This document shows, in pieces, positions 53,350-55,893 of a DNA stretch of 64,000 nt. Position 1 is the first letter of the stretch. The number at the start of each line of letters is the position of its first letter. The stretch is from an uncultured delta proteobacterium (GTDB lineage Bacteria > Myxococcota_A > Polyangia > Fen-1088), in assembly GCA_963737265.1 (NCBI GenBank), contig CAVTRY010000018.1:1-64000 (forward strand). The letters are read 5' to 3'. The translations under genes and the position numbers were made by a program. The notes beneath the pieces were generated by a model. The model was not told the DNA's origin. It did no database searches and saw only the letters and a program-made list of their open reading frames with translations.

Positions 53350-54216
53350 CTAGACGGCGATCGCGAAGGCAATCTTGGGATGGTGCCGGTACCCTTCCAC
53401 GCGCGTTTGCTCGTAGCTCCAGGAGAAGATGTCGCGCGCCCCTCCCGTGACGATGATGGGCAGCGGGTAGGGATCGCGTTGCAGCTGAAGTTGCATGCCC
53501 TCGACGTGGTTGACGTAGACGTGCGTGTCGGCCAGAAAGCCCACCAGGCGCCCTTCCGCAAGCCCCGATTCGCGGGCAAGCAGGTGAAGCAGCAAGGCGT
53601 AGCTCGCGATGTTGAAGGGCAAGCCTAGCGCGACGTCGACGCTGCGTTGGTTCCACATCAAGTTCACCTTGCCGTCGAGAACGGTCACCTGGAACCCGTA
53701 GTGGCAGGGCGGAAGCGCCATGCGGTGAAAATCGACTGGGTTCCACGCCGAGACCAGCATCCGCCGATCCTCCGGATTGGATTTGAGCCTTTCGACGAGG
53801 TTCCGCAGTTGATCGATTCCCTGCCCGCGCGGAGGCTGGTCGTGCGCAACGTACTCGGCACCGAAGTGGCGCCACTGCCAACCGTAGATCGGCCCAAGCT
53901 CGCGCTCTGCCATCATTTTGGCGCGGGTTTCGTCGTCGTGCCCGTAGGGCACGCGCTCGGGACTGCACCACTCGTCCCAGATGTGGTTGTTTCGAGAACG
54001 CAGCCACTCCTTGTCGGTGATCCCTCTGATGAAGAACTCCAGCTCCGAAGCGACCAGGCGAAACGGCACCGACTTGGTCGTCAGCAGGGGAAAGCCGGCC
54101 CCGAGATCGTGCTCGAAGATGGCCCCGGGCAGCGTCAGCGCCTCGACGCCGGTGCGGTTTGGCTTCTTGACCCCCTGATCGAGGATTCGGCGGGCGATGT
54201 CCAGGTAGGCTTGCAT
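53350..54216 (-). CDS. thyA: Thymidylate synthase
   Basis: NRTG, FPLLTTK, GPIYGWQWR, LPPCH, QRSVD, PFNIASY, HVYVNH. Confidence 0.95.
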   Translation of the reverse strand: MQAYLDIARRILDQGVKKPNRTGVEALTLPGAIFEHDLGAGFPLLTTKSVPFRLVASELEFFIRGITDKEWLRSRNNHIWDEWCSPERVPYGHDDETRAKMMAERELGPIYGWQWRHFGAEYVAHDQPPRGQGIDQLRNLVERLKSNPEDRRMLVSAWNPVDFHRMALPPCHYGFQVTVLDGKVNLMWNQRSVDVALGLPFNIASYALLLHLLARESGLAEGRLVGFLADTHVYVNHVEGMQLQLQRDPYPLPIIVTGGARDIFSWSYEQTRVEGYRHHPKIAFAIAV

Positions 54217-54235
54217 GAGCGTTTCCTGCCCCTTC

Positions 54236-54808
54236 CTAGCGCCGGGGGCGGACATCGTCTACCCCAACTCGTCGCCACGCGTAGTCTCGGCGATGTAGAA
54301 GCGATGTCGACGGGTGCTTCCCTGAAATGGGGGCTGGGGCTTCACCTCGCCCCGCGCAGGTGGGATCGGAGGGAAAAACAGGGAGGAACGGAGGACCAGA
54401 GGAATCACGGGTTGGGTTGACGAGGCGGCGGAGACCCTCGCGAAGTACGGGGACGTGGAAATTGACGAGCAGGCCCACCGGCAGTCGTAGGAGCTTGAGA
54501 TAGGTAATGACCTGTGCCAAGTGGACAGGAAGCAACTGCTCTACCGCCTTGACTTCGACGACCAAACGGCCTTCCACCATGAGGTCGAGGCGATAGCCGC
54601 AGTCGAGGTCAATGCCTTTGTACTGCAGAGGAATCGCGACCTGACGTTGCGTGCGAAATCCACGCAGGCCTAGCTCGCGCGCCAGGCAGTGCTCGTAGGC
54701 CGACTCAAGCAGCCCGGGACCGAGGTGACGGTGGACTTCGATGCAGGCGGCGATAATTTGCCCAGTAAAGTCATCCTGTCTCTGTTTCTCCGTTCCTCGC
54801 TGTTCCAT
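54236..54808 (-). CDS. GxxExxY protein (PD-(D/E)XK nuclease-like). Conserved core ends near 54416 and the ORF reads out through the element end
   Basis: HRHLGPGLLESAY, RLDLMV, VVEVKAV, AQVITYLK, GLLVNF. Confidence 0.9.
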   Translation of the reverse strand: MEQRGTEKQRQDDFTGQIIAACIEVHRHLGPGLLESAYEHCLARELGLRGFRTQRQVAIPLQYKGIDLDCGYRLDLMVEGRLVVEVKAVEQLLPVHLAQVITYLKLLRLPVGLLVNFHVPVLREGLRRLVNPTRDSSGPPFLPVFPSDPTCAGRGEAPAPISGKHPSTSLLHRRDYAWRRVGVDDVRPRR

Positions 54809-54890
54809 ATCTGCGTTTTCGGCGGCACTCCGCCAGAAGTTGCTACCTCACCGAGCCCCCGGCTGGGGCCCCCGTTTCAGGGAGGCACCC
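54312..54890. mobile_element. 579-bp transposase-less TIR element with 9-bp target-site duplication, carrying a GxxExxY gene
   Basis: TIRs 54312-54334 and 54868-54890 match at 21/23. GATGTCGAC at 54303-54311 and 54891-54899. Inner inverted repeats 54377-54401 and 54780-54804 match at 22/25. Confidence 0.8.
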
Positions 54891-55056
54891 GATGTCGACG
54901 GCAAGCTTGACGACGCAGCGATAAGAAGCATAGCTTCTGCGCCTAGAGACCAAGAATGACTGCGGGAAATGGCTAAATAGCCGGTTGTCGTGTCCGGCTT
55001 CTGGTTGACGGTTCCCCTCCTTTTTGATGGCTCCCAAGAGAAAGGAAACAAACGTG

Positions 55057-55893
55057 ATGACTAGAGCGCTTACAGGTACTGCCCTTGCCCTATTTCTCGT
55101 GGCCTGCGGCAGCAGTGGCAGCAGCACAAGCAACGGCAAGGACGGCGGCGGCACGAGCAGAATGGATGGCGACAGCACGAGCAGCATAGACAGCACCACC
55201 GACACGATCGACAGCGCCACCAGCAGCATCGACGGCGCCACCGGCAGCATCGACAGCGCCACCGGCAGCATCGACAGCGCCACCGGCAGTATCGACGGCG
55301 CCACCGGCAGCATCGACGGCGCCACCGGCAGCATCGACAGCGCCACGGGTGGCATCGACAGCGCGAGCAGCATCGACAGCGCCATGAGCAGCATCGACAG
55401 CGGCGTCGGCAGCACCGACAGCGCCATCGGCAGCACCGACAGCGCCAACGGCAGCACCGACAGCGGCAGCACGCTACTCGGAGGCTGCCCTGACCTCTCT
55501 GGCGTGTACAATGTAACAACGGAGATTGTAAGCACGACCTGCCCCCTGGGATTGCACGTCATCACGCAGCCAATAACCTGGACGTTCGTACAGACTGCAC
55601 CGAGCTGTAATTTCACCATGACCAATTCCCTGTACCCAACCTCGCTTTATGCGGGACAATTCAGCATGGTCGGGACCCAGGCTAGGGTGACTTGGACCTC
55701 GGCGACCCCTGCTCCCATCGTTAGCGGCTACGCCCTGACGTACACGGCAGAGAGTCTCACGATCACGCGCGCGGTGGCGCCAGCGACGGCGACGCTTTCA
55801 GGCAGCTTTGATTGGAACAGTGCCTATCCTTGCTCCGGCACTACGAACGTCTGCAGCGGCAGCGTTGCCTCGGGTTGCCTCACGCCCAACTAG
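55057..55893 (+). CDS. Lipoprotein with 7-aa tandem repeats and a Cys-containing beta-rich C-terminal domain
   Basis: LVAC lipobox, (SIDSATG)n, six downstream Cys. AAGGA RBS. Confidence 0.75.
   Translation: MTRALTGTALALFLVACGSSGSSTSNGKDGGGTSRMDGDSTSSIDSTTDTIDSATSSIDGATGSIDSATGSIDSATGSIDGATGSIDGATGSIDSATGGIDSASSIDSAMSSIDSGVGSTDSAIGSTDSANGSTDSGSTLLGGCPDLSGVYNVTTEIVSTTCPLGLHVITQPITWTFVQTAPSCNFTMTNSLYPTSLYAGQFSMVGTQARVTWTSATPAPIVSGYALTYTAESLTITRAVAPATATLSGSFDWNSAYPCSGTTNVCSGSVASGCLTPN
55183..55470 (+). repeat. Coding 21-bp tandem repeat, about 14 degenerate units
   Basis: Consensus AGCATCGACAGCGCCACCGGC. One internal unit is shortened to 18 bp. Confidence 0.9.

Follow-up and report, generated by a model that had tools for sequence, protein, structure and literature searches.

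A 579-bp unit at positions 54312–54890 of the analysed DNA (the window: a stretch of 64,000 nt, contig C18:1-64000 of the source genome G000) was found to be a real, recently active non-autonomous mobile element. It is bounded by terminal inverted repeats (TIRs) of 23–24 nt and a perfect 9-bp target site duplication (TSD), and carries an open reading frame (ORF) of the GxxExxY nuclease family. G000 is a 6.55-Mb draft metagenome-assembled genome (MAG) of 25 contigs with an estimated contamination of 7.6%. With a probability of roughly 0.85, the element is an ISKra4-group mobile insertion cassette, that is, a miniature inverted-repeat transposable element (MITE) with a passenger gene, whose GxxExxY cargo is mobilised in trans. 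A preliminary description of this DNA had offered two alternatives. The first, a MITE with a nuclease passenger mobilised in trans, is supported by TSDs at multiple copies and by insertion sequences (ISs) with the same ends. The second, in which GxxExxY aids its own spread, is disfavoured as variants with a dead ORF have spread.

Copies of the element and their target sites

BLASTN of the unit against G000 resulted in 31 full-length copies of 92.9–100% identity, the alignments of which begin and end exactly at the TIR tips. A perfect 9-bp TSD was observed in 29 of the 31, and the different duplications sought as a check on the preliminary description were found in the form of 28 distinct 9-mers, the number being one short of 29 because two tandem copies on contig C17 share one. 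The two remaining full copies have a 10-bp TSD and, in a member of an older 93% subfamily, a TSD matching at 7/9 positions. The sites of the 28 distinct perfect TSDs have unrelated flanks and are spread over 11 contigs. Beyond the full copies there are 4 interrupted copies, 3 truncated copies and 1 internally deleted remnant, the latter detected by BLAST only, for a total of ~39. A fuzzy search of G000 returned 73 TIR ends within 4 mismatches of the left TIR, all of them belonging to element copies, namely the 31 full, 4 interrupted and 3 truncated ones.

The tandem copies, at C17:62354-63520, are non-identical and the 9-mer CCGTGGCGC is present three times around them; two insertions therefore took place at one promoter-proximal target. 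Two further copies (C20:14118-16133 and C23:162554-164571) are interrupted by a 1434-bp IS of the PF01609 (IS4-type DDE) family. This IS has the ends CATAGGCATTAACCC, 11-bp TSDs and ~10 copies, and its position and orientation differ between the two interrupted copies. The resulting 2-kb versions were considered as an autonomous master in G000 and rejected, being ordinary copies interrupted by the 1434-bp IS. Extra inserts of ~100–200 bp were also seen in the element copies at C13:547670-548445 and C20:7328-8008. The IS content of G000 is high; its other ISs, named from Pfam matches, include IS21-like, IS3-like, ISL3 and IS91-like elements in addition to the PF01609 (IS4-type DDE) type.

In Logan contigs of four soil-metagenome runs the depth of the element was ~60–95 vs ~3 for its flank. 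Loose ends of these contigs lie at most 2 bases from 54312, or precisely at 54890, and continue into the flanks of other copies. As the runs may be the source sample, depth and breaks were counted as non-independent support.

A spacing pattern was spotted in a listing of the flanks, and the published rule for the ISKra4 group was matched to it afterwards. The pentamer GTCAA occurs 7 nt past the TSD on the left side in 6/30 independent sites (p = 5e-14 before correction for ~94,000 tests). Read outward, GTCAA is TTGAC, and the sites were accordingly scored by simple hexamer match to TTGACA, not with the promoter predictor of PMC3942029. A hexamer matching at 5/6 positions or more starts at a distance of exactly 16 bp on the left-TIR side in 6/30 sites and on the right-TIR side in 1, namely that in this window, and the other 36 left distances tested gave 1 such hexamer in all. 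At the level of ≥4/6, which had no separate control, 15/30 sites carry a hexamer at 16 bp (11 left and 4 right). ISKra4-group elements are reported to insert at a fixed 13–17 bp upstream of sigmaA −35 boxes in >20% of sites (PMC3942029, accessible part). With 16 bp in 7/30 sites at ≥5/6, the target-site spacing of the element matches this hallmark of the group. Near-perfect inverted repeats (IRs) go with both insertion orientations in the same part of that article; the element however shows a 6:1 left bias despite TIRs that are 91% complementary. Promoter-proximal targeting by ISKra4-group transposases, a rare insertion specificity, thereby gains independent confirmation from an element that is non-autonomous and from a lineage that is new. 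The ~39 cassettes just upstream of promoters could rewire the expression of neighbouring genes; in the window, the cassette lies between thyA-folA on one side and a repeat-rich ORF on the other.

Matching insertion sequences and a proposed mechanism

ORF and family profile searches of the 579 bp returned no transposase gene inside the element. A search of G000 with the NF033572 (ISKra4 transposase) profile returned three lineages. One is represented by a single-copy 2120-bp ISKra4-family IS at C20:66979-69098 with the 9-bp TSD GGAAAGCGG and an intact transposase (C20:67228-68484) scoring 256.8 bits against a cut-off of 205. Its ends, GGGTGCCTAACCGAAACGGGGGA and GGGTGCCTACCTAAACCGGGGGT, each match the right TIR of the element at 19/23 positions and the left TIR at 17/23, and are the sole sites in G000 with 4 mismatches or fewer to a TIR outside element copies. 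TCGACA lies 16 bp away from this IS. Contig C20 also holds two element copies, and the IS and the cassette therefore share a replicon. Downstream of the transposase and inside the same IS, a 144-aa frame (C20:68527-68961) is without Pfam or NCBIfam match and could represent a passenger gene.

Two other candidates were rejected as the source of the transposase. The second ISKra4-family gene of G000, C7:242277-243649, shares only 27% identity with the C20 transposase and lacks a TIR match. A 1782-bp ISKra4-like IS matches the TIR at only 11/23 positions, despite a shared 9-bp TSD and a 16-bp spacing from a −35-like hexamer at 5/24 ends. The latter IS, present at C2:48037-49818 and in ~10 further copies with the TIR GGGTGGGTTGCACGGG and a 9-bp TSD, belongs to a divergent ISKra4-like lineage; its 606-aa ORF has no Pfam match and scores 177.8 bits on NF033572, below the cut-off.

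Closer matches were obtained outside G000. An exact scan with the TIR pattern of the element matched 11 metagenome contigs, and four of these (L144, L147, L149 and L151) hold ISs of 2.0–2.15 kb that are bounded by exact TIR matches, encode ISKra4-family transposases 73–74% identical to the C20 transposase and contain no GxxExxY gene. One end of the L147 IS matches element positions 1–54 at 92.7%. Autonomous ISs that share the ends of the element, which the preliminary description had proposed looking for, therefore exist, and the left end of the cassette is derived from an IS of this kind. Genome contigs yielded 8 loci with relatives of the C20 transposase, and 7 of these loci (61–74% identical) were inspected for ends. 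These ends were of the GGGTGC type in 5/7; one relative has an end matching the element TIR at 20/23, and two Bryobacterales copies have perfect 9-bp TSDs.

The TIR matches found belong only to ISKra4-family ISs, no search with PF00872 (IS256) having been made. The ISKra4 group is p-MULT4 of the Mutator superfamily, beside IS256, which is p-MULT1 (Guerillot et al. 2014, PMC3942029, accessible part). The earlier suggestion of IS256/Mutator-like ends was thus close, the ends being those of the ISKra4 group. As the element has no transposase and an ISKra4 transposase is available in trans, it is an ISKra4 derivative and not an IS.

Under the proposed mechanism, a DDE transposase supplied in trans would bind the 23-nt TIRs of the cassette and insert it at a target cut with a 9-bp stagger, with a preference for positions 16 bp upstream of −35 boxes of the sigma-70 type. 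This transposase would most probably come from the intact IS at C20:66979-69098 or a recently lost closer relative, the C20 transposase being the probable acting enzyme, and transposition may follow the circular-intermediate route proposed for the Mutator superfamily. Repeated rounds would have led to the ~39 copies, the GxxExxY gene being carried along, still enclosed by a short inverted repeat of the kind frequently seen around GxxExxY genes. The nuclease itself would play no part in transposition.

The GxxExxY passenger and alternative explanations

Pfam and NCBIfam profile searches matched only PF13366/TIGR04256 within the 579-bp element, in agreement with the earlier view that a GxxExxY gene is its sole cargo. 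The ORF scores 139.7 bits (E 7e-41) on PF13366 PDDEXK_3 against a cut-off of 22, and 141.5 bits (E 1.4e-41) on TIGR04256 GxxExxY against a cut-off of 35. Residues G30, G32, E35, Y38, D75, E85, K87, H96, N116 and F117, kept in 55–58 of 58 class sequences, are all present. The GxxExxY motif and the D...ExK catalytic core residues are intact, and were invariant or near-invariant in a second alignment. The AlphaFold (AF2) model, with a pLDDT of 93.6, has a predicted restriction-endonuclease-like fold. A PDB sequence search with the nuclease gave no match. The best Foldseek match was Cas4 SSO0001 at E 9e-3, with none below E 1e-3. VIA-align ranked R.SwaI (Z 7.9), Cas4 (Z 7.3) and Hjc (Z 6.0) among matches the top 37 of which by Z were all nuclease-fold chains with middling scores of Z 5.2–7.9. 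The model thus supports a PD-(D/E)XK fold, from which nuclease activity is predicted. In the accessible part of Steczkiewicz et al. 2012 (PMC3424549), GxxExxY/PDDEXK_3 proteins are entered with an unknown function and 'multiple transfers'. Residence in, or mobility by, a TIR/TSD cassette is unmentioned in the literature found naming GxxExxY or PF13366/PDDEXK_3.

Between G000 and same-genus copies dN/dS spanned 0.13–0.36, and the protein has therefore been functional over the longer term. Within G000 the ORF is intact in 14 of the 31 full copies, altered in its tail only in 2 and disrupted in 15. A frameshift (200C>-) is common to 7 copies at different loci, one of which is restored in frame by a second indel, and a start loss (497T>G) and the change 211->G each occur in 3 copies. 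These shared disrupting changes fall outside homopolymer runs. Variants with a dead ORF have thus spread, and because they are shared across several loci the nuclease ORF is unneeded in cis.

The element accounts for nearly all GxxExxY genes of the genome. G000 has 43 PF13366 matches, of which 42 lie within element copies (the exception is C22:198374-198724), compared to 0–9 in 300 sampled relatives. In the class sample, 49/301 genomes have GxxExxY, mostly with 1–4 matches. That the element explains GxxExxY copy expansion, as had been suggested, holds for this genome, and gives a concrete cause for the expansion of the gene, namely passive amplification in an IS-derived cassette and not duplication under selection. 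TIRs of the same type were detected in 8/89 genomes of the order by pattern search, and G018, which belongs to another genus, has one end that matches exactly. In G011 (C405, 83-2585) a TIR pair with 2–3 mismatches and a degenerate TSD surrounds genes for a ClC chloride channel and a MarR regulator, and may be a second cassette with other cargo.

The cassette of nuclease and inner inverted repeat could itself be selfish, entering shells non-randomly or raising their copy number; the nuclease might for instance cut DNA whereupon repair copies the element, or help the burst in trans with a DDE transposase integrating. We regard this as unlikely. The inner module of the element (positions ~44–539) is present without the G000 TIRs in the same-genus genomes G005 (91%) and G009 (82%, two copies), which speaks for such a module. 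Genomes G003 and G004 carry ~290-bp derivatives of the module that lack the ORF core, as 11 near-full-length matches within a different inverted-repeat shell (GGGAACCCTGAGAGGGCACCCCTTTCAAGG...), in addition to 6 shorter matches in G003 and 3 in G004. The second shell favours a selfish module; the multicopy state of the ORF-deleted derivatives argues against one, as does the unrelated cargo between TIRs of the same type in G011. The tips of the G003/G004 shell form a hairpin, and its flanks share CGCGAT.

Further support for selfishness comes from the class, where a strong inverted repeat (score ≥40) hugs the ORF at 15/52 GxxExxY loci. At this score the controls gave 0 reversed, 2 direct-repeat and 0 shuffled cases, and 23 loci lie above the best shuffle. 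The bracketing arms consist of tandem 8–9-nt purine-rich units (e.g. CACAGAGGA or CACGGAGG) over 25–75 nt and differ in sequence between paralogues. They start beside the ATG and encode N-terminal residues, and their complement after the domain encodes the C-terminal tail. Within the genus, 91.6% of cells of the inner repeat are paired in 15 sequences, but covariation was not significant, the 1 compensatory pair being reached by 76/500 shuffles, which is a point against the selfish module. No rRNA or other Rfam family was found around 20 inverted-repeat-bracketed GxxExxY loci, and an origin of these loci as intervening sequences accordingly has no support. Elsewhere, G313 (C2) contains three 99% identical 1-kb units with a GxxExxY gene and no obvious TIRs, and in G274 oppositely oriented pairs of GxxExxY genes are enclosed by ~360-nt inverted repeats.

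Purifying selection on the gene, its intact catalytic residues and the ~39 cassette copies against one IS copy also fit a selfish module. Against these stand the ORF-dead lineages, which spread equally well, though intact copies could supply the protein in trans, and the low copy number of GxxExxY across the class (at most 9 matches in a genome), from which it follows that the gene alone does not drive expansion. The broader notion that GxxExxY genes in their own purine-rich-unit inverted repeats are an unrecognised class of selfish nuclease cassettes, which invade transposon shells or travel with them, the nuclease boosting the copy number of the shell, is improbable to a similar degree. If it were true, the ISKra4-ended element would be a partnership caught mid-burst and the ORF-deleted copies of G003 and G004 the remains of another. 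The inverted repeats around many GxxExxY genes in any case offer a handle on the role of the nuclease.

It is very improbable that the element is autonomous, with GxxExxY as the sole transposition protein cutting the TIRs and making the 9-bp staggered cut in the target. GxxExxY is the only family-matched ORF in a high-copy element and its modelled fold is that of DNA-cutting enzymes such as R.SwaI, Cas4 and Hjc. However, the TIRs, TSD length and 16-bp promoter spacing fit a DDE transposase family present in G000, the ISs that share these ends code for a transposase but lack GxxExxY, and the 15/31 copies without an intact ORF include variants that have spread. The PD-(D/E)XK fold by itself is not known to have strand-transfer activity. 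Segmental duplication, recombination or assembly artefact as the origin of the copies has a negligible probability even in a draft MAG with the above contamination, given 28 distinct perfect TSDs that abut the TIR tips precisely and lie in unrelated flanks spread over 11 contigs, independently assembled public-run contigs whose breaks are no more than 2 bases away from these two boundaries, and two copies into which another IS has inserted with an 11-bp TSD in each case.

Several observations nevertheless weigh against an ISKra4-group cassette mobilised in trans. The TIR match to the C20 IS covers only 19/23 and 17/23 positions with nothing similar beyond the TIR, and because of this partial match cross-mobilisation by the C20 IS is something that we infer. 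The ISs with exact ends come from metagenome contigs only and none is in the 25-contig draft assembly. The C20 transposase was not found in G018, G009, G011, G005 or G003, genomes with TIR-like ends or the inner module and fragmented assemblies. The empty sites that the preliminary description had proposed looking for did not turn up: the flanks have no DNA-level alignment in 12 same-genus genomes, and neither an empty site nor an excision joint was present in the Logan contigs of the four runs. Gene conversion between copies could in principle, in place of transposition, have spread the shared ORF-disrupting variants. Lastly, the module in the second shell of G003 and G004 hints that more than chance may have brought nuclease and mobile shell together.

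Anatomy of the element and comparison with known systems

Direct re-reading of the window confirmed the previously described TSD, TIRs (21/23), 579-bp size and position of the gene (Table 1). Extended to 24 nt (54311–54334 and 54868–54891) the outer arms are 92% complementary, equal to 21/23 over 23-nt arms. The 25-nt arms of the inner inverted repeat are 88% complementary and closely bracket the nuclease ORF. This ORF has no stop codon within the element, a detail that had been overlooked; its frame exits via the left TIR and ends in the flank.

Table 1. Positions of the element and associated features in the window
Feature	Position	Strand	Basis and remarks
Left TSD copy, GATGTCGAC	54303-54311	no strand	Direct reading and direct-repeat scan
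Left TIR, GGGTGCTTCCCTGAAATGGGGGC	54312-54334	+	Inverted-repeat scan; start point of all 31 full copies
Right TIR, tip inward, GGGTGCCTCCCTGAAACGGGGGC	54868-54890	-	Inverted-repeat scan; 19/23 to both C20 IS ends
Right TSD copy, GATGTCGAC	54891-54899	no strand	Direct reading and repeat scan
Inner inverted-repeat arm	54377-54401	no strand	Just downstream of the nuclease domain (gene strand); encodes part of the C-terminal tail
Inner inverted-repeat arm	54780-54804	no strand	Spans ORF codons 2-10
GxxExxY / PDDEXK_3 nuclease ORF	54808..54236	-	190 aa; domain at aa 13-129 (window ~54425-54772)
−35-like hexamer TTGACG (predicted)	54907-54912	+	Starts exactly 16 bp from the right TIR; directed outward, to the ORF at 55024

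The element is neighboured by the divergently oriented thyA-folA on one side, thyA being named from a PF00303 match and folA by reading of the translation, and by the repeat-rich ORF at 55024 on the other. The latter (55024–55893) has a lipoprotein-like N-terminus and at least 9 tandem 21-nt repeats coding for 7-residue units (e.g. GSIDSAT), and matches no Pfam family. A search for Rfam families in the element gave nothing real, a simple scan of 54150–55100 for sigma-70-type promoters and terminators gave no match, and a plasmid collection contained no match to the element.

Within the ISKra4 group, IRs span 18–39 bp, direct repeats (DRs) 8–9 bp, and four elements bear extra genes (PMC3942029, accessible part). 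The TIRs of the element, at 23–24 nt and starting with G, fall within this range, and its 9-bp repeats and position 16 bp upstream of −35 boxes likewise resemble the group, unlike its lack of an NF033572 transposase of its own. The main text of Guerillot et al. 2014 (PMC3942029) makes no use of the word MITE. The element is similar to MITEs in being short, non-autonomous and high in copy number relative to the parent IS, with the TIRs and TSD of the parent; it differs in that it codes for an intact protein on which purifying selection acts, classical MITEs being non-coding. It is a typical member of the GxxExxY family (TIGR04256/PF13366), scoring far above both cut-offs with all family-conserved residues present, yet in contrast to the published accounts found, the gene here resides in a TIR/TSD cassette.

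The closest correspondence is with mobile insertion cassettes, of which MIC231 of the Bacillus cereus group is reportedly one example. Another is the qnrS2 cassette of the Aeromonas plasmid pAC3 (PMC5444012, accessible part). As in these, the element combines TIRs of an IS family and a TSD of the length of that family with a protein-coding passenger, no transposase and a matching autonomous IS. Its two TIRs, copy-specific TSDs and same-end autonomous IS place it in this category, to which mobilisation in trans would also belong. Unlike other mobile insertion cassettes, it has an ISKra4-group parent, its passenger is a GxxExxY nuclease whose ORF lacks a stop within the element, and a single genome holds ~39 nearly identical copies of it. 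The kind is therefore known, and the member, with its ISKra4 parent, nuclease passenger and copy number, appears to be new.

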